This document shows, piece by piece, positions 8,840-63,386 of a stretch of 64,000 nt of DNA. How positions within the stretch are numbered: position 1 is the first letter of the stretch; every line of letters starts with the position of its first letter. Source of the stretch: a virus (lineage: Duplodnaviria > Caudoviricetes); IMG/VR virus record IMGVR_UViG_3300020577_005688, positions 77,351 through 141,350 of that record; one strand, 5' to 3'. Both the position numbers and the translations under genes were made by a program. The notes under the pieces are model-generated. The model made no database searches, was not told where the DNA came from, and saw only the letters and a list, made by a program, of their open reading frames with translations.

Positions 8840-9159
8840 TGGACGACTCACTCTTGTGGGAGTGCAACGAGACTGAACTCCTGCATCTTGCTTATGAGCA
8901 GGGCCTCGGACGGTTGAAAGTGGGCCTCCCAAAGGAGACTCTCTTTCAAATCGTCCGTGGTGAAATCAACCCATCACCAGAGCACCTCTCGGAAACGAAG
9001 AACACGAGGGAGTTGCTTGAGAAGTTCATCGAGCGCCACTGGGAGAAGACCCGTAGCCAACTTCCTGGGTGCAATGGAAAATGTACTTCTTATCCTTGCT
9101 CTGATGGACGTCATGGGGCATGTTACGCGCCCAACAAACACCTCGTGAGTCTCGGATGA
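8836..9159 (+). CDS. hypothetical protein with C-terminal Cys cluster
   Basis: SD GGAGG; ATGA coupling. Confidence 0.65.
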   Translation: MMDDSLLWECNETELLHLAYEQGLGRLKVGLPKETLFQIVRGEINPSPEHLSETKNTRELLEKFIERHWEKTRSQLPGCNGKCTSYPCSDGRHGACYAPNKHLVSLG

Positions 9160-9371
9160 GGGGCTACTGTCTTAGCTGTACGCGAATCGCAGACTGTAAT
9201 GAAACAGATGTAGAGAAGGTGAAGTCAGACTACACGTGCCTCAGGTACGAGCCAGTCGAAGAAGCGGTGTTTCGTGCGAGAGAGTTCACCATCGCAAAGT
9301 ACGGAGACTCTCTCGCAATTCAGGCCATGCTGAATCGGCCATTACTCTCCAAAGGAGAAGATGATGAGTGA
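9156..9371 (+). CDS. small Cys-containing hypothetical protein
   Basis: ATGA overlap; YCLSC...C...C. Confidence 0.55.
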   Translation: MRGYCLSCTRIADCNETDVEKVKSDYTCLRYEPVEEAVFRAREFTIAKYGDSLAIQAMLNRPLLSKGEDDE

Positions 9372-10422
9372 GGGCATTAAGCTTCCTCCCGAGACTACGG
9401 GTCAAAAGTACTCGGAAAGGGAGCAAGCGTTCAAGAACTGTACGTTCTTTACGCTTCGAAAAGTTGCAACGGAAGGTCTGAAGATCGACACGGGTCAGAC
9501 CATCTACGTAAACGCGGACGGGAAACCGTTCTGCGACTACAACGACACCATCCGTGACCGCAATCTCGTTCGACAGAGGATCCTCGACTACGAGCTTGCC
9601 CAAGGTTGGATTGTCGATGACCGTGGGGCACAACAAGCTGTTGCTCAAATCGTCCAACCCGTTCCTCAACCCGCTGTTCCTGTGCAGGAGACCATGTCAA
9701 CTGTTCCAACTGTTCCCATCGCTGCTGCAATGATGACCATCAACTCCGCACCGGCTCCTACTCCACAGCCTCAACCGCAGCCACCTCCTGCAAGCGATGC
9801 CGGAGCTCCCACTGGAAAGAAGCGCCCCGGACCTCGTCTTCCTTCTGCAGTTGCCCCTCCGACAACGGCAGTCGCACAACCACAACCGCCTCCAGGAGCA
9901 ATGACGGTTCACGCACCCGTCGTCACTCCCGCCCCTGTTCAGGCAACTGCCACGATGACACCAACCATCATCGTGCCGGAGCAGACCCAAGTGCAGCCGT
10001 TCACTCCTCCCACTGCGATGCCAGCTCCTGTCTCAGTGAGGCCGTTCACTGTTCCTGCCGCCCCAGTTGCACAGGCTCCAGTGGCCGCCCCAGCCGCTCC
10101 TGCGGGTTCCGACAAGAAGCTGGACGCCATCGGAAGTGGTCTCGAAATCATCTCAAGGGATGTCGAGTCACACCGGAAGGACTTCTCCCAGTTCGTCAGC
10201 AACATGTCGGAGCAGGTCAACACCAACAACAAGAGCATCAAGGCACATGATGAGGCCCTGAAGGAAATCCAGAGAAGCCTCGATATTGTGTTGACTGCGA
10301 TTCACCACATCTACCTCACCATTCCTGGACTCCAGGCTGGGGCAGTTGAGGCGAAGGCCAACATCGGAACAGCTCCTGAGTTCCGAGAGTACATCGCGAA
10401 GTTCACTGTTCCGCGCCCTTAA
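9361..10422 (+). CDS. Pro/Ala/Gln-rich protein with C-terminal coiled coil (short frameshift product)
   Basis: 353-aa ORF, SD AAGGAG, low-complexity central linker. Confidence 0.8.
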   Translation: MMSEGIKLPPETTGQKYSEREQAFKNCTFFTLRKVATEGLKIDTGQTIYVNADGKPFCDYNDTIRDRNLVRQRILDYELAQGWIVDDRGAQQAVAQIVQPVPQPAVPVQETMSTVPTVPIAAAMMTINSAPAPTPQPQPQPPPASDAGAPTGKKRPGPRLPSAVAPPTTAVAQPQPPPGAMTVHAPVVTPAPVQATATMTPTIIVPEQTQVQPFTPPTAMPAPVSVRPFTVPAAPVAQAPVAAPAAPAGSDKKLDAIGSGLEIISRDVESHRKDFSQFVSNMSEQVNTNNKSIKAHDEALKEIQRSLDIVLTAIHHIYLTIPGLQAGAVEAKANIGTAPEFREYIAKFTVPRP

Positions 10423-10655
10423 GTGGGACGCAGCAACAGCCTCAGCAGGAGCCAACAGTTCCTGCTGGACTGCGTCCAAACACTCAACAACCAACAACCT
10501 TGTTGGAAGTTGCGGCTGAGGATTTGTGGAAACTGACGAATGCCCAGCTCATCGAGTTTGCTGAGATGGCGCTGGGGATTCTCATCAAGCCAGATGAAGA
10601 GCGTTCCACCATCATGAGGAAGCTCGTGAACGCAGCATCTGGGATTCGAAAGTAG
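10416..10655 (+). other. candidate programmed -1 frameshift extension (78 aa) of 9361..10422
   Basis: C-CCT-TAA can re-pair as CCC-TTA. The -1 frame is open 10380-10655 (LSGTQQQPQQEPTVPAG...AASGIRK*). A strong stem-loop lies at 10426-10477. Confidence 0.65.
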
Positions 10656-10657
10656 AG

Positions 10658-10692
10658 GAAAGGGCCTCGGTTCAATGAGGCCCTTTCTTTTT
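10658..10692 (+). terminator. intrinsic terminator between convergent modules
   Basis: GAAAGGGCCTC-8nt-GAGGCCCTTTC followed by TTTTT. Confidence 0.85.
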
Positions 10693-54523: not shown

Positions 54524-54597
54524 ACGGCAGAAGCCCCACTGGTAAGGGTACGGGCCTCCAAAACCCGCCGCTACAGGTTCGAATCCTGTCTGCCGTG
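54524..54597 (+). tRNA. tRNA-Trp(CCA)
   Basis: Acceptor ACGGCAG/CTGCCGT, loop CT-CCA-AA, T-loop TTCGAAT; no encoded CCA end. Confidence 0.88.
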
Positions 54598-54598
54598 C

Positions 54599-54898
54599 AT
54601 GGAATCTCTAGAATGCGCTCTCACTTACAATCCCCAAGGATGGGGAATCTCAGACATTGAGTCTGTGGCACTTGCAATCGACAACTCACACGAGAAGGAT
54701 GAACCAGACTACACCTGGATTCTCGGAATGAAGTCTGGAGAGTGGTACGCTGTACGTGGGTGGCACGATTACACCGGATGGGATTGTCAGTCTGGTTTGA
54801 GCACGGAGAAATACAAAACAAGAGAAGAAGCGTTCGCAACTCTTGTTGACTGGGAACGAGACATCGTAGAGAAGAACGCGGTCGTAGCTCAGAGGTAG
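54599..54898 (+). CDS. hypothetical protein (starts 2 nt after tRNA-Trp, stop inside tRNA-Gly)
   Basis: 99 aa; W....MKSG.W....GWHDYTGWDCQ motif. Confidence 0.65.
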   Translation: MESLECALTYNPQGWGISDIESVALAIDNSHEKDEPDYTWILGMKSGEWYAVRGWHDYTGWDCQSGLSTEKYKTREEAFATLVDWERDIVEKNAVVAQR

Positions 54899-54949
54899 AG
54901 CGTCTGCTTGCCATGCAGAAGGACGAGGGTTCAATTCCCTCCGGCCGCT
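54878..54949 (+). tRNA. tRNA-Gly(GCC)
   Basis: GCGGTCG/CGGCCGC, TCTGC-TTGCCAT-GCAGA. Confidence 0.92.
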
Positions 54950-54955
54950 TCATAT

Positions 54956-55038
54956 GGGGATGTTGAGAGTAAGGTCACTCGGTTAGACTGTAAATCTGAC
55001 GTCTTCGGAACAACTCGGTTCGAGTCCGAGCATCCCCA
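54956..55038 (+). tRNA. tRNA-Tyr(GTA)
   Basis: GGGGATG/CATCCCC, CT-GTA-AA, long variable arm. Confidence 0.88.
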
Positions 55039-55141
55039 ACGCGAACTCTCAGACGGAAATCTGAGAGAGTTCATTGAAATTCGAATAGTAGTGGCATTGT
55101 CTTCTGGATTGGTTCTGTCCTCTCCAGTCTGGAAGACATTT

Positions 55142-55214
55142 GCGTCCATAGCTCAATCGGTAGAGCAAGCGCCTCTTAAGCGCGAGGTTGTGGGTTCAAT
55201 TCCCTCTGGACGCA
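55142..55214 (+). tRNA. tRNA-Lys(CTT)
   Basis: GCGTCCA/TGGACGC, CT-CTT-AA. Confidence 0.92.
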
Positions 55215-55215
55215 C

Positions 55216-55404
55216 ATGAGTGATGAAAAGAAGGAAGGCTGGGGTGTCTTGAATCTCGTGACAAAGAAGTACGAGCAGGCCAAGAAGACGAAGAAGGAGG
55301 CGATGGAAGTCGTTGACGACTTGAACTCAGTAAGCACCGCCTTGAAGTCGGAGACAAGGTACGCAGTCATTCCTGGCAAATTCAGCGAGGATCTCTTCAA
55401 GTGA
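55216..55404 (+). CDS. hypothetical protein
   Basis: ATG 2 nt after tRNA-Lys; coupled to the next gene. Confidence 0.6.
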   Translation: MSDEKKEGWGVLNLVTKKYEQAKKTKKEAMEVVDDLNSVSTALKSETRYAVIPGKFSEDLFK

Positions 55405-55652
55405 AATACGAGATTGTCAGTACCGAAGTGTTCATCTACCCACTTGGATTCGACATTCATTGGGTCGCAAAGAACTGGGCAGCCCTTCCTGGGAGCCCAC
55501 TCAGGGATATGCCGGTGTCCGGCATTTTGTCGTTTCAAAAGACTCGCGACGGTTTCACGAAAGTCAATACTGAGACCATGGGCGAGGAGTTTTGTACTGC
55601 GGTCCTTACTCAGTTTCTTCGAGACTCTCTGAAAGAGAGCGAGGAAAAGTGA
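55401..55652 (+). CDS. hypothetical protein
   Basis: GTGA coupling. Confidence 0.55.
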   Translation: MKYEIVSTEVFIYPLGFDIHWVAKNWAALPGSPLRDMPVSGILSFQKTRDGFTKVNTETMGEEFCTAVLTQFLRDSLKESEEK

Positions 55653-55891
55653 AGAAACTTCTAAGTGATAAGAAGAAGGTGGAGTTCATTCGCATCTGGA
55701 GTGACTGGTTCTACGACCACTCTTCTTCTTACCGAGGAGCACTCGGAGTTCAATTGGCCTATCTTTGGCCCGCAATAATCAGAGAACACCAAATCGAAGT
55801 CTCAGAAAGGAGCGCCATCGTGAAATTGCTTCGTAAACAGAAGGTAGCTCCAGACTCCGACATTTGGGGCTACCTAGACATCGTCGGATAA
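55649..55891 (+). CDS. hypothetical protein
   Basis: GTG with SD GAGG; stop 2 nt before tRNA-Lys(TTT). Confidence 0.55.
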   Translation: MKKLLSDKKKVEFIRIWSDWFYDHSSSYRGALGVQLAYLWPAIIREHQIEVSERSAIVKLLRKQKVAPDSDIWGYLDIVG

Positions 55892-55892
55892 G

Positions 55893-55965
55893 GGATCCAT
55901 AGCTCAGTAGGTAGAGCAGCGGACTTTTAATCCGAGGGTCGTGGGTTCGAGCCCCACTGGATCCA
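55893..55965 (+). tRNA. tRNA-Lys(TTT)
   Basis: GGATCCA/TGGATCC, CT-TTT-AA. Confidence 0.93.
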
Positions 55966-55966
55966 T

Positions 55967-56694
55967 TCTCACATTGTTGGAGGACCAATGGCTTGAGATA
56001 ACCTTTTAAACGTGGCGCATCCGAAACGCTCTGGCTTGGTGTAAGCGAGCTGAAGTGGTCAGCCCTCTCAAATCAAACCATGTACCGGTGTCGATATCGA
56101 GAGACGCACAAACTCTGCAGTACTCGTCAAGGCGTGGCTGAGCGGACCGTCGACTTATCAATCGATAGGCGGGATGGCACCTGCCGAAAATCCAGGGCAA
56201 AAATTCTAAGACGAGAGAGTTGAGGAGAGAACTCGCGATTCTCAGTAGGCGAGTTGGATGTTGGCCAGCATATAATTTGACTGAAACCTTTGAGATAGAT
56301 TGACTCCAATGATCATTACACAATGCGAGGCGCTCGGGACTGTGGTGTAAGCGAGCCGTGTTGACCCACGCGGTGGGCCGACGACATACGGACAACGGGG
56401 AAGGAACAGTCGAGACTACATGTTGACCGGGATCCGCCCCTCCTCCAAAGGAGACAGGCGTGAAGGTCGGGGTGAGAGCAATCACTGCGGATAGTTTCTC
56501 CGTTTACGCACAGGGCCGACAGTCCGGGTATTTACCGGAAGTTGGCTTGGGGATGCAGAGGTCGCGTTCTGCACTGGAACGAGCATAGCAGCTCCCAACA
56601 TGAGTGGAGCTAAAGAAGTGAACATCTTTCCCTCATATCTCAGCCTATTGTACATCCATGCGTGTACACTATGTTACTGGGATATTGAGGCATC
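55967..56694 (+). ncRNA. large (~730 nt) structured non-coding RNA candidate (GOLLD/ROOL-like context)
   Basis: No + strand ORF of 60 aa or more; many helices with G-U pairs; 14-nt direct repeat TGGTGTAAGCGAGC; bounded by tRNAs. Confidence 0.6.
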
Positions 56695-56695
56695 T

Positions 56696-56766
56696 GCGGG
56701 TGTAGCTCAATGGTAGAGCCACAGCCTTCCAAGCTGAGGACGAGGGTTCGATTCCCTCTACCCGCT
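56696..56766 (+). tRNA. tRNA-Gly(TCC)
   Basis: GCGGGTG/TACCCGC, CT-TCC-AA. Confidence 0.92.
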
Positions 56767-56780
56767 CTCTCTCAAGACAC

Positions 56781-56852
56781 AATTGATTCGTCTAGTGGTT
56801 AGGATACTGCCCCTTGAAGGCAGTGACGTTGGTTCGAATCCAACATCGAGAG
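56781..56852 (+). pseudogene. degenerate tRNA-Gln(TTG)
   Basis: Intact D, anticodon and T arms, but C33 (loop CC-TTG-AA) and unpaired acceptor positions 1-2. Confidence 0.65.
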
Positions 56853-56854
56853 TG

Positions 56855-57003
56855 AGGCGAGAATTCTGCATCGTGAGGTGCAGACAAAGAGTACCGCATT
56901 ACTGAAGCGTGAAACCTTCTGGAAGTGCGGAGGCAAGGGGGCCATGAGTACACGAACATCTTCGTGTATTGAATCCCCTAGGTCTCCAAGGTACTCTTTG
57001 CCT
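56855..57003 (+). ncRNA. ~150-nt multi-stem structured RNA candidate
   Basis: Perfect 11-bp CAAAGAGTACC/GGTACTCTTTG enclosing two hairpins; GTGA-capped hairpin 5' of it. Confidence 0.5.
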
Positions 57004-57065
57004 ACGGGACTTAGTGGTAAGACAAGAATCGAGAGGTATTCGGTTCTCACAAGAAGAGTCGACAA

Positions 57066-57329
57066 ATGGGCGTTCGTGCGAAGATGCGTTGTGTCGAAGT
57101 GTCAGAGAGAACCAGCGTGACTGGGGCCGGTCTTGTCGAAGCGAAGTACATCCGTCTCCAAGCTGTGTACGGTGGAGACGACGACAAGGAGAACAGGGAC
57201 TGGTCGAAGTGGACACCCTCAGGAGAGTTGGCAATGACAGTCACCAACCCTGACGCCTTCAATCAGTTCAAGATCGGCAAGTGCTACTTCATCGACATGA
57301 ATGAAGTCATCGTCGAGCCAGTCAAGTAG
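57066..57329 (+). CDS. conserved-type phage hypothetical protein
   Basis: VRAK.RC...L.AVY...EN..WSKWTPSG.L.M...NP.A...F..GK.Y..D. Confidence 0.75.
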   Translation: MGVRAKMRCVEVSERTSVTGAGLVEAKYIRLQAVYGGDDDKENRDWSKWTPSGELAMTVTNPDAFNQFKIGKCYFIDMNEVIVEPVK

Positions 57330-57437
57330 TTCAGATCGTCAGCAAACCCGTGCCCTGCGAAGAGCGATTGGCCTTGGTGATTCCACAAGAGTCTCTACGG
57401 GAATGTCGCGAGCCCCGGCGAAACTGGGGTGTAGTTT

Positions 57438-57510
57438 TGGAGAGTGGCGCAATTGGTAGCGCAGTGGATTCTGACTCCAAAGGTTGAAGGTTCAAGTCCT
57501 TCCTCTCCAG
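57438..57510 (+). tRNA. tRNA-Gln(CTG)
   Basis: TGGAGAG/CTCTCCA, TT-CTG-AC. Confidence 0.88.
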
Positions 57511-57511
57511 C

Positions 57512-57916
57512 ATGACCATTCAATACAAGAAGGACGCTTTTGTTTTTGTGTTTGGAAGTAACCTTGCCGGTGTACATGGGGCTGGGGCTGCTCTCTTTGC
57601 GAGAAGGCATAGAGGTGCAGTACCTGGGCAAGGAGTGGGGCCACAAGGAGAGTCGTACGCCATCCCAACCAAAGACGAGAGAATCGAGACTCTCCCTTTG
57701 GAACTCATCAAACCTCACATCGAAGACTTCTTTCGATACGCGGCGGCCAACCCGACAGTCTTGTTTCAAGTGACTCGAATCGGATGCGGTCTCGCCGGAT
57801 TTACAGACGAGCAAATTGCTCCGTTGTTCAAGACTGCACCCAAGAACTGCATCATGCCACTTGAGTGGCTTCCATTCGTTGGAGACTTCAAAACGTGGGG
57901 TTCATTTGACGCTTGA
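57512..57916 (+). CDS. A1S_2505-type phage protein (macrodomain-like)
   Basis: VFVFGSNLAGVHGAGAA...SYAIPTK...FQVTRIGCGLAGF..EQIAPLF. Confidence 0.8.
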   Translation: MTIQYKKDAFVFVFGSNLAGVHGAGAALFARRHRGAVPGQGVGPQGESYAIPTKDERIETLPLELIKPHIEDFFRYAAANPTVLFQVTRIGCGLAGFTDEQIAPLFKTAPKNCIMPLEWLPFVGDFKTWGSFDA

Positions 57917-58205
57917 AAGCATCCCGACCGACGTTCCTCAGATTTGCCCAAAGTGTGACTACGTGTTCGATCACGTCACTGCCGCCGACTCGGAGATGGG
58001 GAAACCGTCACCAGGAGACTTCTCCATCTGCCTCAACTGTGGGGTCGTTCTTCAGTTCAGTGAGAACATGACACAAGTAGATGCGTCCCCAGAAGACTTC
58101 GAGAAGCTCGAAGAAGGCGACAAGACTCTCATCTTGCGGATTGTCCACGCAGTGAAGAGTAGTCCGAGCTTCGGAAAACTCGTCCGAAGAGACAAGATTC
58201 AGTGA
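57906..58205 (+). CDS. small zinc-finger protein
   Basis: CPKC...PGDFSICLNCG; start uncertain (TTG 57906). Confidence 0.6.
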   Translation: MTLESIPTDVPQICPKCDYVFDHVTAADSEMGKPSPGDFSICLNCGVVLQFSENMTQVDASPEDFEKLEEGDKTLILRIVHAVKSSPSFGKLVRRDKIQ

Positions 58206-58212
58206 GCAGTAT

Positions 58213-58285
58213 TGGGGTGTAGCTCAATTGGTAGAGCGGCGGACTTTGAATCCGTAGGTTCTAGGTTCAAGCCCTAGCACCCCAG
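58213..58285 (+). tRNA. tRNA-Gln(TTG)
   Basis: TGGGGTG/CACCCCA, CT-TTG-AA. Confidence 0.92.
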
Positions 58286-58289
58286 TAGA

Positions 58290-58361
58290 GCCGACGTAGC
58301 ACAACGGTAGTGCATCTGATTTGTAATCAGGAGGTTGTCGGTTCAAATCCGACCGTCGGCA
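58290..58361 (+). tRNA. tRNA-Thr(TGT)
   Basis: GCCGACG/CGTCGGC, TT-TGT-AA. Confidence 0.92.
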
Positions 58362-58375
58362 TAGGCGTAGTGATG

Positions 58376-58384
58376 TGGTATAGT
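58376..58384 (+). promoter_or_regulatory. extended -10 promoter (leaderless geometry)
   Basis: TG-G-TATAGT ends 6 nt before ATG 58391; no SD. Confidence 0.5.
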
Positions 58385-58390
58385 AGCGGT

Positions 58391-58756
58391 ATGTCCAAGA
58401 AAATCCTCATCGTCGAAGACGACGAATCAGTTCAGATTCTACTCAAGCTCTTCTTGATTCGATTGAGCCACAACATCATCGAAGCAAAGAACGGACTTGA
58501 GGGAATCGGGATGGCGAGACAGTTCAAACCGGACGTCATCATTGCGGACTTGAACATGCCTATCTTGGATGGGATTGAGATGTTGAAGGTCTTGAAGGCA
58601 GACCCATCAACTTCCCATATTCCAGTTGTAATCTTCACTGGGTCTTCAGGCGAGCAGCAGCAGAGAGCATCTGAGGCAGGAGCCGTCACTGTTCTCTCAA
58701 AGCCCATCTCAAGACAAGACCTCATTCAGGTCATCGACTCAGTTCTTCAGAAGTAA
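58391..58756 (+). CDS. single-domain response regulator (CheY-like receiver)
   Basis: ILIVEDD, phospho-Asp in IADLNMP..DG, IFT, SKP. Confidence 0.9.
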   Translation: MSKKILIVEDDESVQILLKLFLIRLSHNIIEAKNGLEGIGMARQFKPDVIIADLNMPILDGIEMLKVLKADPSTSHIPVVIFTGSSGEQQQRASEAGAVTVLSKPISRQDLIQVIDSVLQK

Positions 58757-58831
58757 GTATCTCAAGCTAATCTGGTGAAAGCGACAGGCTGTTAACCTGT
58801 GTCAAGCAGGGTTCGATCCCCTGGAGATACG
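58757..58831 (+). tRNA. tRNA-Asn(GTT)
   Basis: GTATCTC/GAGATAC, ACAGG-CTGTTAA-CCTGT; A at position 8. Confidence 0.85.
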
Positions 58832-58834
58832 CAC

Positions 58835-58866
58835 GGCGTGGTTGCCAAGTGGGAAGGCGTCGGTCT
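58835..58866 (+). pseudogene. 5' half of a tRNA (Cys-like), broken at the anticodon loop
   Basis: GGCGTGG-TT-GCC-AAGTGGGAA-GGC-G-TCGGT-CT, then unrelated sequence; no 3' half found. Confidence 0.6.
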
Positions 58867-58879
58867 AGGATCCTGTCCT

Positions 58880-59374
58880 ATGACCAGAACCATTAAAAGA
58901 CCAGGAGTCGCGAAGGCAAACGTTGCCCGTCGTGAAGCGACGGATTCTAGTACAAGGATGAACGCACTCTACGAGTGGGAGAAATGGAAGCAGAATCCAC
59001 ATTTCACACTCGGGCTTGGTCTGTACATAGGAGAAGGGACTAAGACTCACCGAGAGTTAGTGTTCACAAACGCAGACCCTAACGTCATGCGTCTCTGGCA
59101 AGCGTGGTGCTCCGTATTCCTTCCAGAAGTGCCAATGAGTCTCTCCATCCAGATACCAACGGACGTGGATCCTTCAGAAGCTAAGAGGTTCTGGAAGAGA
59201 AGGCTTGGAATGGTACCTAGAATCTACCAAAGCAAAGGTGGGACAAAAGGGGTCGGGAAATTTAAGCATCGAAAGCTACCATTCGGAACAGCTCGTCTGA
59301 GAGCCGGAGTCGGTGGAACAGACGCGTTCGTGAAAATGGAATACTGGATCTCTCTTTGCCTTATGACCACATAG
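58880..59374 (+). CDS. LAGLIDADG-like homing endonuclease
   Basis: LGLGLYIGEGTK helix followed by LVFTNADP, as in single-motif LAGLIDADG-like proteins. Confidence 0.6.
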   Translation: MTRTIKRPGVAKANVARREATDSSTRMNALYEWEKWKQNPHFTLGLGLYIGEGTKTHRELVFTNADPNVMRLWQAWCSVFLPEVPMSLSIQIPTDVDPSEAKRFWKRRLGMVPRIYQSKGGTKGVGKFKHRKLPFGTARLRAGVGGTDAFVKMEYWISLCLMTT

Positions 59375-59395
59375 CGTGCTTCCGAGTGAGACCTC

Positions 59396-59626
59396 ATGGA
59401 CATCCTGAAGCTCGTTGTCTTGATACAGAGGTACAAATCCCTGTATGGGAAAGTTCAAGTAGTAACCATAGACAAAAGAGTTCCTGCTGGGAGCGGCGTA
59501 GCCTTCGTAGATACCAACAGCCTATTTACTCTTGCAGTGGATTCTGAAGAAAGTCGCCTCGTAGCCATAGACCTTCTTGAAGAGAAAAACCTCGTTGAAC
59601 TCAAAGGAGAGACCGCCATGACATAA
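59396..59626 (+). CDS. hypothetical protein
   Basis: 76-aa ORF. Confidence 0.45.
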   Translation: MDILKLVVLIQRYKSLYGKVQVVTIDKRVPAGSGVAFVDTNSLFTLAVDSEESRLVAIDLLEEKNLVELKGETAMT

Positions 59627-59644
59627 CCCTAACAAGAGGTTGTC

Positions 59645-59818
59645 ATGAAGAGAGGTCAGCAGTTCGGAACCTTCATCCGTGGTAAGGCTCGACTTCGAAA
59701 GAACAAGAAGAAAGAACTCAGTCGAGCAGAGAGGACTGAAGCGAAGAGGCAGTTGAAGAAAAACCCAGAAGAGGTAGAGACGAAACCTCGAAGGCGATAC
59801 TGGGGGTATGACGACTAA
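59645..59818 (+). CDS. 57-aa basic protein (below ORF-track cutoff)
   Basis: SD GAGG; MKRGQQFG...RRRYWGYDD*. Confidence 0.55.
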   Translation: MKRGQQFGTFIRGKARLRKNKKKELSRAERTEAKRQLKKNPEEVETKPRRRYWGYDD

Positions 59819-59824
59819 GAAGTA

Positions 59825-59897
59825 GGCCCCATCTTCTAATGGCTAGGATGCTAGATTCTCAATCTGGCGATCGAGGGTTCAAATCCCCGTGGGGTCA
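59825..59897 (+). tRNA. tRNA-Glu(CTC)
   Basis: GGCCCCA/TGGGGTC, TT-CTC-AA. Confidence 0.9.
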
Positions 59898-59899
59898 AC

Positions 59900-60250
59900 A
59901 TGAAATCCGGCATACACAGGAGCACACGAGCGAAGAGGCTCGCAGAGGTCCGAGCAGTCCATAAAGAAATAAACGACAGAACGGGCCTTATCGATTTTGA
60001 GGGAGCGGGGTATATCCCAGAGTCAGCGCATTCGTTCTTTCCTGGAGTAGATCGGATTGCCACGTACCCGGTCACTGACATGTGGAGTGCTATCCACTCA
60101 CTTCAGGTACTGGATGAACTTGATGAGTTCGAGCAGAGTGCATTGAGTGATTCGCATCGATTCGATGCAGGAGTGGCGAGCTTGATGCGTCGATATGACG
60201 AAGTGAGAGAACCCGAAACTGGTCATTGGTTTATCGGCCCTATCGACTAA
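59900..60250 (+). CDS. hypothetical protein (starts 3 nt after tRNA-Glu(CTC), stop inside tRNA-Glu(TTC))
   Basis: 116-aa ORF filling the space between two tRNAs. Confidence 0.55.
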   Translation: MKSGIHRSTRAKRLAEVRAVHKEINDRTGLIDFEGAGYIPESAHSFFPGVDRIATYPVTDMWSAIHSLQVLDELDEFEQSALSDSHRFDAGVASLMRRYDEVREPETGHWFIGPID

Positions 60251-60307
60251 AGGTTAGGTCGCCACCCTTTCAAGGTGTGAATCCGGGTTCGAATCCCGGT
60301 AGGGTCA
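60236..60307 (+). tRNA. tRNA-Glu(TTC)
   Basis: GGCCCTA/TAGGGTC, CT-TTC-AA. Confidence 0.9.
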
Positions 60308-60321
60308 TCTGAACGAAGTAT

Positions 60322-60395
60322 CTGGGTATAGCTCAGTTTGGTAGAGCGCTTGCCTTGGGCGCAAGAGGCCGCTGGTTCGAATCCAGCTACCCAGA
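60322..60395 (+). tRNA. tRNA-Pro(TGG)
   Basis: CTGGGTA/TACCCAG, CT-TGG-GC. Confidence 0.92.
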
Positions 60396-60396
60396 C

Positions 60397-60630
60397 ATGA
60401 AGACAGCAGAGAAGGAAGCAATTTGGGTGTGGCGTTTTGAGGATGCTCCAGAAGAGTATCAAGCTCTCTCAAACAATGGAGGAGATGAGGACTGGCTTGC
60501 AGTTGTGCCTTCCTCCTTCAAGGGAGTTTGGATTCCGTGGCTCGAAGGTGGGTCACCTTTCGGAGTCTGCGACGTCCAGATTTACACTCTGGAGAGTGGG
60601 CACCAAGTCTACATCGGGTCTCATTCATGA
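60397..60630 (+). CDS. hypothetical protein
   Basis: ATG 2 nt after tRNA-Pro; W.F.DAPE.YQ.LS.NGGDEDWLA motif. Confidence 0.65.
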   Translation: MKTAEKEAIWVWRFEDAPEEYQALSNNGGDEDWLAVVPSSFKGVWIPWLEGGSPFGVCDVQIYTLESGHQVYIGSHS

Positions 60631-60830
60631 AGTACGTACACACGAAGACCGGCAACATCTACGAAGTCCTCTCAAAAGAAGCTAAACACACGGAGACTCT
60701 CGAAGAGCTCGTTGTGTATAGGAGCCTCAAAGATGGCCGAGTTTGGGTGCGGCCACATGTGATGTTCTTCGGCTCCGTGAAAATCAATGGGGAGGAAGTT
60801 CCTCGGTTCCAGCCCATGTTCGAGGAGTGA
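60627..60830 (+). CDS. DUF1653-family protein
   Basis: Y.H.K.G..Y.V...A.HTET.EELVVY......WVRP..MF. Confidence 0.85.
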   Translation: MKYVHTKTGNIYEVLSKEAKHTETLEELVVYRSLKDGRVWVRPHVMFFGSVKINGEEVPRFQPMFEE

Positions 60831-60832
60831 AG

Positions 60833-61183
60833 ATGGCAAAAAGAAAACTGGGACTCTACTTCGACAAGAACGGAGTCGAGATCTCAATGCAGGAGATGGC
60901 GGCTCTAAGAGCCAACGAAGAGTACTCAACGATTCGGAGAACGGTCCTTCCGAATGGTTCTCTAGTCTCCACCGTGTGGCTTGGAATCGACCATGGATAC
61001 CAGTCGCCGGTACCCATCGTGTTCGAGACCATGAGCTTCAAGAGGGGCGAGAGTGGGGAGATCGATTGGGGTGGGGTCCACTCAAATCGTTACGCTACAG
61101 AGGAAGAGGCAATCAAAGGCCACGAAGAAATCGTGAAGCTGATGATGGAAGAAATCCCGCCACGTTCGATCGATCTGACATGA
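60833..61183 (+). CDS. conserved-type phage hypothetical protein
   Basis: SD GAGGAG; VSTVWLG.DH...P..FETM.F...RY.T.EEA..GH. Confidence 0.75.
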   Translation: MAKRKLGLYFDKNGVEISMQEMAALRANEEYSTIRRTVLPNGSLVSTVWLGIDHGYQSPVPIVFETMSFKRGESGEIDWGGVHSNRYATEEEAIKGHEEIVKLMMEEIPPRSIDLT

Positions 61184-61461
61184 CCAAAAAGCTCCGACCA
61201 ACAGACCTTCCGAAGTTCAGGCCAGGAGACAAGGTCATCCTCCAGCACGCAGATAAGGATGACCCCGAAGCTGCAGAGTTCGGAATCATGACGGGGAGGG
61301 AGTACGGAGTCATCGTTGCTACTTGGTGGGATGACTTCCTTGGAGCATATGACTGTTGGATTGCGTTCTACGGAAAAAGAGGCTTTCCGAAAGACCCTAG
61401 CAAGACAAAACCGTACATCTTGAAGTACTTCGAGACGAGCCTCACTGCGTGGAAGAAATGA
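61180..61461 (+). CDS. hypothetical protein (SH3/KOW-like)
   Basis: PKFRPGDKV; ATGA coupling. Confidence 0.6.
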   Translation: MTKKLRPTDLPKFRPGDKVILQHADKDDPEAAEFGIMTGREYGVIVATWWDDFLGAYDCWIAFYGKRGFPKDPSKTKPYILKYFETSLTAWKK

Positions 61462-61667
61462 GACTGAGCCTACGGTTCTTCAAATCAAGTGACGGGAAGT
61501 TCGGGTACAACTCAATCTTCGTTGGAGAGTTCAAGGAGAGGGAGCTGTGGTTTCAAACTCTGCCAATGAGTGAGTGGTACATCGGTCCTCGGCAGGTGTG
61601 GTACGACGGACCCATCAAGCTCTTTGGATTCGGGTTCTGCGAGTTTCTATGGCACTACCCAATGTGA
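61458..61667 (+). CDS. hypothetical protein
   Basis: ATGA coupling; aromatic-rich 69 aa. Confidence 0.5.
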   Translation: MRLSLRFFKSSDGKFGYNSIFVGEFKERELWFQTLPMSEWYIGPRQVWYDGPIKLFGFGFCEFLWHYPM

Positions 61668-61861
61668 AACGAAATCAACCCCAAGAACCTATCAAGCTCA
61701 GTGATGGGGTTGAGCCATGCGGAAAGCTCGGATGTGCCAGTCTTGCAGTGTTTGGCTACAGACTTTGTAGACCTCACATTGAAGAATGGAGAAAGAGCAA
61801 AGAGGCGTCAGAGAAAGTCTACGACCTCAGACCGCTCTTCGAGCAATGGCGGAAGAGATGA
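61664..61861 (+). CDS. small Cys/His protein
   Basis: GTGA coupling; C...GC......LC..H. Confidence 0.45.
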   Translation: MKRNQPQEPIKLSDGVEPCGKLGCASLAVFGYRLCRPHIEEWRKSKEASEKVYDLRPLFEQWRKR

Positions 61862-61866
61862 AGGAT

Positions 61867-61937
61867 GCGCCCGTAGTACAATGGTAGTACAATCGCCTGA
61901 TAAGCGATAAACGAAAGTTCGATTCTTTCCGGGCGCA
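61867..61937 (+). tRNA. tRNA-Ile(GAT)
   Basis: GCGCCCG/CGGGCGC, ATCGC-CTGATAA-GCGAT. Confidence 0.9.
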
Positions 61938-62018
61938 CTGTGGTCTCCTGAACTCGACATACGGAGGTGCTGGGAGCGTAAGCAGGGATGGCTGTCCCGG
62001 CCACACCAATGTATAAAT

Positions 62019-62091
62019 GGCGTTGTTCGTCTAATGGCTAGGACACGAGATTGTGGATCTCGTTATACGGGTTCGACTCCCGTACATCGCC
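62019..62091 (+). tRNA. tRNA-His(GTG)
   Basis: G-1:C73 identity pair, CGAGA-TTGTGGA-TCTCG. Confidence 0.9.
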
Positions 62092-62092
62092 C

Positions 62093-62233
62093 TGATTTAC
62101 CCGGCCGAAGAGTCCCTACACGCAAACTATCTAGGTTCGAGTCCTAGTTCTCGCGAAAGCGAAAATAGCCTAAGGGTAAGGCATCTGACTCTTAATCAGA
62201 CCAAACTTGTGGATTCCTCACTCGGGTGAATCA
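62093..62233 (+). ncRNA. Y-RNA (YrlA)-like RNA containing a circularly permuted tRNA-Lys(CTT) module
   Basis: Outer stem TGATTTACCCG/CGGGTGAATCA with GCCGAAG; inside, in order: T arm, acceptor stem capped by GAAA, D arm, anticodon arm; T-run after. Confidence 0.7.
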
Positions 62234-62249
62234 ATTTTTAAGTCGCAGA

Positions 62250-62321
62250 GGTTCGTTACGCATCTGGTGAGGCGACCGCCCTGTCACGGCGATGAGATGG
62301 GTTCAATTCCCATACGAACCG
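62250..62321 (+). tRNA. tRNA-Asp(GTC)
   Basis: GGTTCGT/ACGAACC, CT-GTC-AC. Confidence 0.88.
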
Positions 62322-62403
62322 TTCGAGCTAAATGTCAGACCACCTCGGTATAAGGAGGTTGGCGAGCATATCGTTCGCCTTCAACCAACACGAGGGGAAG
62401 TTC

Positions 62404-63276
62404 ATGTCCAAGAAGAAGATCCCGACGAAGACGGAGACGTTCAACAAGGAGAAGGCCGAGCAGACGGTGAAGGCTGCCTCCAACGTGACGATCGAAGGTG
62501 CTGTCAAGAAGATCACCGAGGTGAACCTCACCATCGGCAAGACGTTGAACGATGTCAGCCAGCAGCTCACGCAGCAGGTCAACGAGTTCACCAACATCTC
62601 GACGGCGGTCGAACTCAAGAAGACGGAGCTCGAACAGCTGCACGAGAAGGAGCTCGTTCTCCAGGACATCGAAGACCTCAAGGCACAGAAGGCCGAAGAA
62701 GAAGCGGCATACGAGACCCGTCGCATCGAGCTCGCCAACGAGCACGCGCGAGAGAAGAAGCAGTGGGAGTACGACTTCAGCATCGAAACCCGCAACAGGA
62801 ATGACGAGCTGAACGAGCAGATTCGCCTCAAGAAGCTCGAAGAGCGGAATCGCCAGGACGACCTCGAACGTGAGTGGAAGCGTCGTGGTGAAGAGCTGAC
62901 GGCCAGGGAGACCGAGTTCATGAACCTGAAGGCTCAGGTCGCCACCTTCCCCGAGAAGCTCGAAGCGGAGAAGAAGGAAGCCTCCAACGCTGCTGCCGCT
63001 GCGGTCAGGCGCGACTACGACCACAAGCTCGCCCTCCTGGAGAAGGACCGTGCCACGGAAAACCAGATCAACCTGTCGAAGATCGCGCAGCTCACCGACA
63101 CCAACAACAAGCTGGCTGCTCAGCTTTCTGCTGCCGAGGCTCGCATCGCCGAGAGCGAGCGGAACGTGAAGTCGATCGCCGAGAAGGCGCTGGAGAGCTC
63201 GGGTTCTCAGAAGACCCTGTCGGAGCTCCAGCTCATGCAGAACTCGCCGAACGGCTCCAACCGCAAGACGGTGTAA
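62404..63276 (+). CDS. long coiled-coil protein
   Basis: SD GAGGGG before ATG 62404; E/K/R-rich heptads; strongly G/C-ending codons. Confidence 0.8.
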   Translation: MSKKKIPTKTETFNKEKAEQTVKAASNVTIEGAVKKITEVNLTIGKTLNDVSQQLTQQVNEFTNISTAVELKKTELEQLHEKELVLQDIEDLKAQKAEEEAAYETRRIELANEHAREKKQWEYDFSIETRNRNDELNEQIRLKKLEERNRQDDLEREWKRRGEELTARETEFMNLKAQVATFPEKLEAEKKEASNAAAAAVRRDYDHKLALLEKDRATENQINLSKIAQLTDTNNKLAAQLSAAEARIAESERNVKSIAEKALESSGSQKTLSELQLMQNSPNGSNRKTV

Positions 63277-63283
63277 GAAGCAC

Positions 63284-63311
63284 AACCTGGAGGTCACTCC
63301 TCCAGGTTTTT
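63284..63311 (+). terminator. intrinsic terminator
   Basis: AACCTGGAGG-TCACT-CCTCCAGGTT followed by TTT. Confidence 0.8.
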
Positions 63312-63312
63312 A

Positions 63313-63385
63313 GCCAGTATCGCGTAGGTGGTCCGCGCGTCTGCCTGAAGAGCAGAAGGAGACTGTTCGATTCAGTCTACTGGCA
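63313..63385 (+). tRNA. tRNA-Phe(GAA)
   Basis: GCCAGTA/TACTGGC, TCTGC-CTGAAGA-GCAGA. Confidence 0.88.
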
Positions 63386-63386
63386 C

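Follow-up and report, generated by a model that had tools for sequence, protein, structure and literature searches.

How is an open reading frame (ORF) expressed that begins inside another gene and has no start codon for its conserved N-terminal part? The question is raised by the 3′ end of a 353-codon gene in a 64,000-nucleotide stretch of DNA (the window), which is the final 64 kb of a phage record of 141 kb in IMG/VR (IMGVR_UViG_3300020577_005688) estimated to be about 75% complete. The gene (9361-10422, plus strand) is defined by its ORF, an AAGGAG Shine-Dalgarno (SD) sequence, homologs and their alignment, and an AlphaFold2 (AF2) model. It is the last gene of an operon for replication and nucleotide metabolism. 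Its 3′ end reads CGC CCT TAA, with CCT at 10417-10419 and TAA at 10420-10422. In the -1 frame, a TGA at 10377-10379 is followed by an uninterrupted reading frame that starts at 10380 and extends to TAG at 10653-10655. A first-pass annotation made from the sequence had placed the gene end and the open frame at these positions, every coordinate being correct, and had proposed that tRNA-Pro slips from CCU to CCC, which would give isoforms of 353 and 431 amino acids. Comparison with relatives lends support to this proposal by revealing a conserved slip site and a covarying hairpin. We consider a tetramer-type programmed -1 ribosomal frameshift the highly probable explanation for the locus, by which this replication-operon gene very probably gives rise to two forms of its protein.

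The proposed slip motif and the downstream hairpin

The comparison covers 19 further assemblies, 20 in all with the window, and these contain 13 distinct junction sequences including that of the window. A word-indexed search yielded seven homologs of the 353-residue protein with 99% to about 47% sequence identity; all seven have 341-353 amino acids, and the position of the stop is therefore conserved. The contigs of these homologs provided loci L002-L012, two matches from a search with the extension provided L013 and L014, and pattern scans of IMG/VR and a metagenome collection led to L015, L016, L017, L019/L020 and L023. With 19 independent assemblies of other samples showing the same arrangement, chance is not a sufficient explanation.

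The proposed slip site in the window is the tetramer C_CCU (10416-10419, plus strand), in which the 0-frame codon CCU (10417-10419) overlaps the -1 codon CCC (10416-10418). The tRNA-Arg in the P-site is unable to re-pair in the -1 frame (CGC to GCG), and the shift would therefore be a single-tRNA event at a tetramer. The remark in the first-pass annotation that the site is not a canonical X XXY YYZ heptamer holds for the window, and can be refined in that the motif belongs to the recognised Z_ZZN class of tetramers (PMC4066793).

Among the 13 distinct junctions, the motif is C_CCU in nine and C_CCC in four, whereas C_CCA or C_CCG never occurs, and in all 13 the Pro codon of the tetramer is located at the 0-frame stop or one codon before it. 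In the clade of the window, the 0-frame ends with CGC CCT followed by TAA, TGA or TAG. L013 and L016 end with ..C CCT CAG TAG, L014 with CCC CCC AAG TAG, and L015, L019 and L023 with GGA AAC CCC, one of the codons AAG, CAG or TCG, and TAG. The latter three are high-GC relatives and possess the canonical heptamer A_AAC_CCC, at which both tRNAs are able to re-pair. The presence of a sense codon between the Pro codon and the stop in L013-L016, L019 and L023 implies that a stop codon in the A-site is not required. In the clade of L006-L009, a -1-frame stop is found only four codons upstream of CCC, so that any shift is confined to the last six 0-frame codons, and these hold C_CCU as the sole re-pairing site. 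The 0-frame stop itself can be TAA, TAG or TGA. Of the unit whose conservation the first-pass annotation had proposed to test, CCCTTA plus a hairpin, C_CCY (C_CCU or C_CCC) and the hairpin are kept, but the stop codon varies and is displaced in distant clades.

A spacer of 6 nt (TAAGTG, 10420-10425, plus strand), which contains the 0-frame stop, separates the tetramer from a putative stimulatory hairpin of two tiers at 10426-10477 on the plus strand. This structure was examined by folding, z-scores, a consensus structure, covariation and a synonymous control. Its outer stem consists of GGACGCAG (10426-10433) paired with CTGCGTCC (10470-10477), and its inner stem of CAGCAGGAGC (10443-10452) paired with GTTCCTGCTG (10458-10467), including one G-U pair; the arms and the 6-nt spacer are exactly those first described. 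The minimum free energy (MFE) of the hairpin in the window is -32.6 kcal/mol, with z = -4.0 as compared to dinucleotide shuffles, of which none out of 200 was as stable. All 13 junctions have a two-tier hairpin whose MFE lies between about -30 and -50 kcal/mol, and an asymmetric internal loop of 7-9 nt, on the 5′ side only, is always present (10434-10442 in the window). In all relatives 5-6 nt separate the Pro codon from the hairpin, with or without an intervening codon before the stop. As this spacing is kept wherever the stop falls, the conserved geometry is that between motif and structure, not that between stop and structure.

The architecture of the hairpin is better preserved than its sequence. 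Inner stems are wholly different between clades (CAGCAGGAGC, AACCAGAGG, AGGGGCCGUC, CUGGGGGAGCC and GGGAGACGGC), each having a matching partner, and L010, L013, L014 and L015 combine the same architecture with entirely different inner stems. In the outer stem, GGACGCAG/CUGCGUCC of the window corresponds to GGGC.CCGAC/GUCGG.GUCC in L006. Covariation was counted in alignment A7, which consists of ten sequences aligned to a covariance model and, being fitted to that model, leans towards structure. In A7, 96.8% of the cells are paired as compared to 88.2 ± 1.5% in shuffles (0/500), six pairs are changed on both sides as compared to 2.8 in shuffles (0/500), and pairing falls to 21-45% when the partners are slid by 1-3 columns. 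Synonymous recoding of the linker peptide encoded by this region was applied to 11 sequences, and in all 11 the native structure proved far more stable than the recodings (z from -3.1 to -5.6; 0/300). A covariance model of the window clade detected L016 at an E-value of 1.5e-11, and gave weak but correctly placed matches in L013 and L015. In addition, the loop sequence CAACA of the window could pair with TGTTG at about 10501-10505 to form a possible pseudoknot, the conservation of which is weak by eye.

In the proposed mechanism, tRNA-Pro would decode CCU 10417-10419 near the end of the 353-codon gene while the two-tier hairpin, 6 nt downstream and thereby at the canonical distance, resists unwinding. 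In a fraction of the ribosomes, tRNA-Pro may then re-pair with the overlapping CCC at 10416-10418, after which translation in the -1 frame would read UUA AGU GGG ..., pass the hairpin and end at the TAG at 10653-10655. This would produce a long isoform of 431 amino acids with the junction ...VPRP-LSGTQQQ..., whereas the remaining ribosomes, expected to be the majority, would stop at UAA and release the 353-residue form. With the extension, the protein would gain a flexible linker, a motif of the RRPNT type and a small domain of three helices.

Expression of the -1 frame and alternative explanations

The -1-frame extension (10419-10655, plus strand) comprises 78 codons and TAG and is defined by its translation, purifying selection, a family alignment and an AF2 model. 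The 78 residues that follow the common Pro (LSGTQQQ...GIRK) are arranged as a Gln/Pro-rich linker (e.g. LSGTQQQPQQEPTVPAGLR), an RPNT motif (10473-10484) and a three-helix domain (about 10515-10640). Comparison of the window with L002 or L003 gave a ratio of nonsynonymous to synonymous substitution rates (dN/dS) of about 0.05-0.06 for the helical domain, with 20-21 changes at third codon positions and 3-4 at each of positions 1 and 2. The -1 frame is free of stop codons in all 13 junction sequences, and the distance from the Pro codon of the tetramer to the P of RRPNT is 59, 62, 65, 68 or 83 nt, which is always 2 mod 3. Such spacing together with the lack of -1 stops is as expected for continuous translation in the -1 frame and not for a non-coding gap. 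The locus combines a slippery motif, a start-less -1 ORF, a conserved 3′ structure and purifying selection, features by which programmed -1 frameshifts are recognised.

Could the -1 frame be a separate small gene of 51-79 amino acids, with its own initiation or termination-reinitiation (for example at TTG 10500/10503 or a non-canonical codon) and with the hairpin gating initiation? Gene callers annotate proteins of this kind, with 79 amino acids from a TTG in L002 and 50 amino acids in L006, and the library of representatives contains family proteins of 65-105 amino acids that start a few residues before RRPNT. Start-like codons in frame occur in some relatives: an ATG is located just before GRRPNT in L019 (1500-1530) and L023 (1495-1525), and L016 has a GTG (2492) in the hairpin loop, without SD sequence. 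The ATG and GTG codons near GRRPNT are probably the reason for the 65-71-residue 'stand-alone' proteins reported by gene callers. In the window, the first canonical start in the -1 frame is TTG 10500 (pair 10500/10503). Other starts in the operon have SD sequences of the GGAG/AGGA type; upstream of TTG 10500/10503 no SD sequence is present, the preceding tract consisting of A and C only and being free of G, which agrees with the earlier statement that the extension of 78 amino acids has no SD-led start. Moreover, this TTG lies 3′ of the RPNT motif. The sequence RRPNT, upstream of the helical domain, is nearly invariant across the family, and since it also precedes TTG 10500, translation must begin before RRPNT. 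Yet in seven of the first 11 distinct junctions, including that of the window, the interval from the preceding -1-frame stop to RRPNT is devoid of ATG, GTG and TTG codons, and in L006 a near-cognate start upstream of RRPNT is absent as well. Where start codons do exist, they are at non-homologous positions, in or beside stems, and without a usable SD sequence. The independent start that the first-pass annotation had put forward as an objection to its own proposal is thus not found as a family feature. As a separate gene would also leave unexplained why C_CCY is invariant and why its distance to the hairpin is fixed at 5-6 nt, we regard this explanation as improbable.

A somewhat less probable alternative is that the hairpin has another role at the RNA level, for example as an RNase III or other processing site, in mRNA stability, or as a protein-binding operator, and that its relation to the reading frames is incidental. 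With its two tiers adding up to about 19 bp, the hairpin has an unusual length for a bacterial stimulator, and no relevant family was found in Rfam at E ≤ 1. However, the expression of a start-less ORF under strong purifying selection would then need a different cause, and such a role would not account for an invariant C_CCY whose distance to the base of the stem is fixed at 5-6 nt.

Bypassing of the type known from T4 gene 60 would require take-off at CCU and landing on the Pro codon CCA of the RPNT motif (10476-10478), with 56 nt being skipped. Matching Pro codons are present on either side of the hairpin in all relatives, the window clade has a stop right after the take-off codon, and the stable hairpin begins at the take-off site. 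The gap would be coding-free, yet its five lengths are all 2 mod 3 and none of the 13 junctions contains a -1-frame stop. The sense codon that precedes the stop in the distant clades does not fit such a scheme either, and no nascent-peptide signal is known here. Bypassing is accordingly very unlikely.

The weakest alternative, in which an indel from sequencing or assembly, or else a frameshift mutation of recent origin, split a single 431-codon gene, would need only one missing base in a contig that is a metagenome assembly, but it can practically be dismissed, as the same frame change is present in 20 assemblies from various samples and pipelines with upstream-protein identities from 99% to about 30%, all three stop codons are used, and there is no in-frame fused homolog. 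Both an assembly indel and a fused homolog had been foreseen as objections in the first-pass annotation. The two-frame arrangement was found in the 19 other assemblies, which come from different samples, and the seven homologs all end at 341-353 residues. An exhaustive HMMER search with the 77-residue extension against 1.84 billion representatives gave 12 matches at E ≤ 1e-3, which have 50-105 amino acids except for one unrelated repeat protein of 332 amino acids, and contained no fusion of about 430 amino acids.

Two further candidates are ruled out: stop-codon read-through, since the 0-frame continuation past the stop ranges from 4 to 54 codons among the relatives and is not conserved, and transcriptional slippage, since the site has no homopolymer run.

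Several points nevertheless weigh against a programmed frameshift. The 431-residue product is a prediction from sequence, and C_CCU and C_CCC are only modest shifters in Escherichia coli, even in combination with a strong pseudoknot (PMC4066793). The tetramer efficiencies are E. coli values. In the window, the P-site tRNA-Arg cannot assist by re-pairing. The GTG in the loop of L016 and the ATG codons before GRRPNT in L019 and L023 are in frame, and the stand-alone proteins of 65-71 amino acids come from further metagenomes, where they are known as protein calls alone; it is possible that a lineage expresses the module independently. Finally, conservation of the linker peptide is inseparable from constraint at the RNA level.

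Comparison with known frameshift signals

All 16 Z_ZZN tetramers were tested in E. coli with a downstream pseudoknot by Sharma et al. in 2014, which gave the order A_AAG >> U_UUC > U_UUU > C_CCU = C_CCC > A_AAA (PMC4066793). With a downstream structure, the six efficient tetramers reached at least four times background, in a range of 0.26% to 5.6% (PMC4066793). Of the C-type tetramers, the phage family has precisely the two that were efficient, in agreement with this hierarchy. The common tetramers named in the survey of insertion sequences (IS) in the same study are A_AAG, U_UUU/C and A_AAA (PMC4066793); C_CCY is not among them, and its natural use therefore appears to be uncommon.

Similar to the Z_ZZN signals of the IS3 family, the phage signal would involve four-base re-pairing by a single tRNA, a structure a few nucleotides downstream, and a C-terminally extended fusion product. 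Unlike in IS3, the gene encodes an uncharacterised phage protein instead of a transposase, the structure is a two-tier hairpin instead of the IS3 pseudoknot, and an upstream SD-like stimulator is absent.

The shift in the tail chaperone gene pair G/GT of phage lambda takes place at the heptamer G_GGA_AAG, without a strong hairpin. The G/GT systems of lambda and many other tailed phages (PMC5009743) resemble the locus described here in that a phage gene undergoes a conserved -1 shift close to its 3′ end, and in the formation of a short and an extended isoform with a common N-terminal part, presumably in a fixed ratio. Whereas G/GT is flanked by the genes for the tail tube and the tape measure, the gene described here lies outside the tail-chaperone position, as had already been noted in the first-pass annotation, and closes the operon that runs from PolA to ThyX and RusA. 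For the 353-residue protein there is also no meaningful match to chaperone families in Pfam or PHROGs.

The Listeria phage PSA, as cited in PMC5009743, has +1 frameshifts at CCC_UGA in capsid and tail genes. These shifts are similar to the proposed one in that slippage of tRNA-Pro on the sense codon immediately before a stop adds a C-terminal extension to a phage protein. They differ in direction, with a +1 slip from CCC to CCU in PSA and a -1 slip from CCU to CCC proposed here, and in that the PSA genes as cited are structural. Furthermore, the adjacent stop is dispensable in the distant clades of the present family.

The τ/γ products of E. coli dnaX likewise involve a -1 shift, a replication-related operon, a downstream stem-loop and isoforms that differ at the C-terminus. 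The dnaX signal consists of A_AAA_AAG with an upstream SD sequence, and the shift shortens the protein. In the phage gene the shift would lengthen the protein, and the two systems are not homologous.

Taken together, the sequence comparisons support the assignment of the locus as a new and well-conserved member of the known tetramer-type -1 frameshift signals, in an uncharacterised gene that closes a replication operon. Comparative support of this completeness is available for few phage frameshifts other than those of tail-chaperone genes, and the family is apparently a natural example of the C_CCY class, for which reporter constructs have been the main object of study. There is also a consequence for annotation: gene callers either miss the extension or report spurious ORFs of 50-105 amino acids, whereas the predicted products have about 353 and 431 amino acids.

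The predicted proteins and their genomic setting

According to the AF2 model, the 353-residue form consists of an N-terminal domain (residues ~4-92, predicted local distance difference test (pLDDT) score ~90), a disordered Pro/Ala/Gln-rich linker (93-249), and a helix of 70 residues (250-320) followed by short helices. The protein gave sub-threshold matches only in Pfam and PHROGs and no usable match in the ESM Atlas. Structure comparison of the model with VIA-align returned only generic coiled coils, which align on the long helix with Z about 6, and BFVD contained no match at E<0.5. A basic GKKRPGPR motif (residues ~152-159; ~9814-9837), reminiscent of an AT-hook or of a short linear motif, is found in almost all homologs despite the variability of the disordered linker.

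The model of the extension shows a disordered linker and then helices H34-38, H42-53 and H63-75 (mean pLDDT 74), in the order helix - helix - extended loop - helix. Its Foldseek matches, which are non-significant (E>4), are dominated by low-rmsd (root-mean-square deviation) alignments of the SAP/Rho-N type, with the N-terminal regions of FAN1, DEK and Rho superimposing at 1.2-2.3 Å over 38-47 columns. None of 15 family members matched Pfam SAP, HeH or Rho_N at E ≤ 1, and a profile search of the PDB was empty. The SAP/Rho-N-like reading of the tail is thus a weak one based on fold resemblance, and the models give only a hint of a nucleic-acid-binding role for the added domain.

The slippage itself and its efficiency, a joint action of the two isoforms (for example in mixed oligomers formed via the long helix) and nucleic-acid binding by the added domain are features that we infer. 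As a tentative suggestion, to which we attach a rather low likelihood, the system could be a fixed-ratio device outside virion assembly. In the replication module, most copies of a coiled-coil, mainly disordered protein would lack a helix-extension-helix tail that binds nucleic acid, whereas a small and constant share would carry it, and mixed oligomers could hold a fixed number of contacts to DNA or RNA. During infection, the tRNA-Pro(UGG) of the phage (see below) might adjust the ratio. If so, the stoichiometry logic of G/GT would be carried over to genome replication or organisation. The two predicted isoforms offer a starting point for studying a protein of no assigned function.

The phage belongs to a lineage of large uncultured phages from freshwater and wastewater, with genomes of about 190 kb; the contig of one relative has 196.8 kb. 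Neither part of the protein was found in GenBank phages (blastn and tblastn, 50,697 records), single-protein scans of IMG/VR with the two window proteins and with the small family proteins P0011 and P0013 gave no match, and a scan of GTDB genomes revealed no relative. The plus-strand operon encodes a family-A DNA polymerase (PolA), a RecA-like ATPase, a PD-(D/E)XK nuclease, kinases, a thymidylate kinase (Tmk), ThyX and RusA.

Directly after the -1-frame stop there is an intrinsic terminator (10658-10692), consisting of the hairpin GAAAGGGCCTC/GAGGCCCTTTC (10658-10687) and a run of five T residues on the plus strand. It is situated between the convergent replication (plus strand) and lysis/structural (minus strand) modules and is common to both. 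A pattern scan scored this terminator on the minus strand, the T5 run being on the plus strand. A hairpin with a T-run after the -1 stop is also present in L002, L003 and L006. At the other end of the 353-codon gene, its start is overlapped by a small Cys-containing ORF (..CLSCTRIADC.., 9120-9371), which has no family match, is kept in L015 and L016, and is syntenic in all relatives.

The window further harbors an array of 17 tRNA genes (54524-63386). One of these encodes a 72-nt tRNA with anticodon TCA (60236-60307), which is labelled 'SeC' by ARAGORN and looks like an opal suppressor. Recoding of TGA by this tRNA is ruled out as an explanation for the -1 frame, since the stop of the 353-codon gene is TAA and TGA terminates 13 of the 32 long ORFs, which excludes wholesale recoding of TGA. 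The gene for the phage-encoded tRNA-Pro(UGG) (60322-60396) adjoins that of the TCA-anticodon tRNA.

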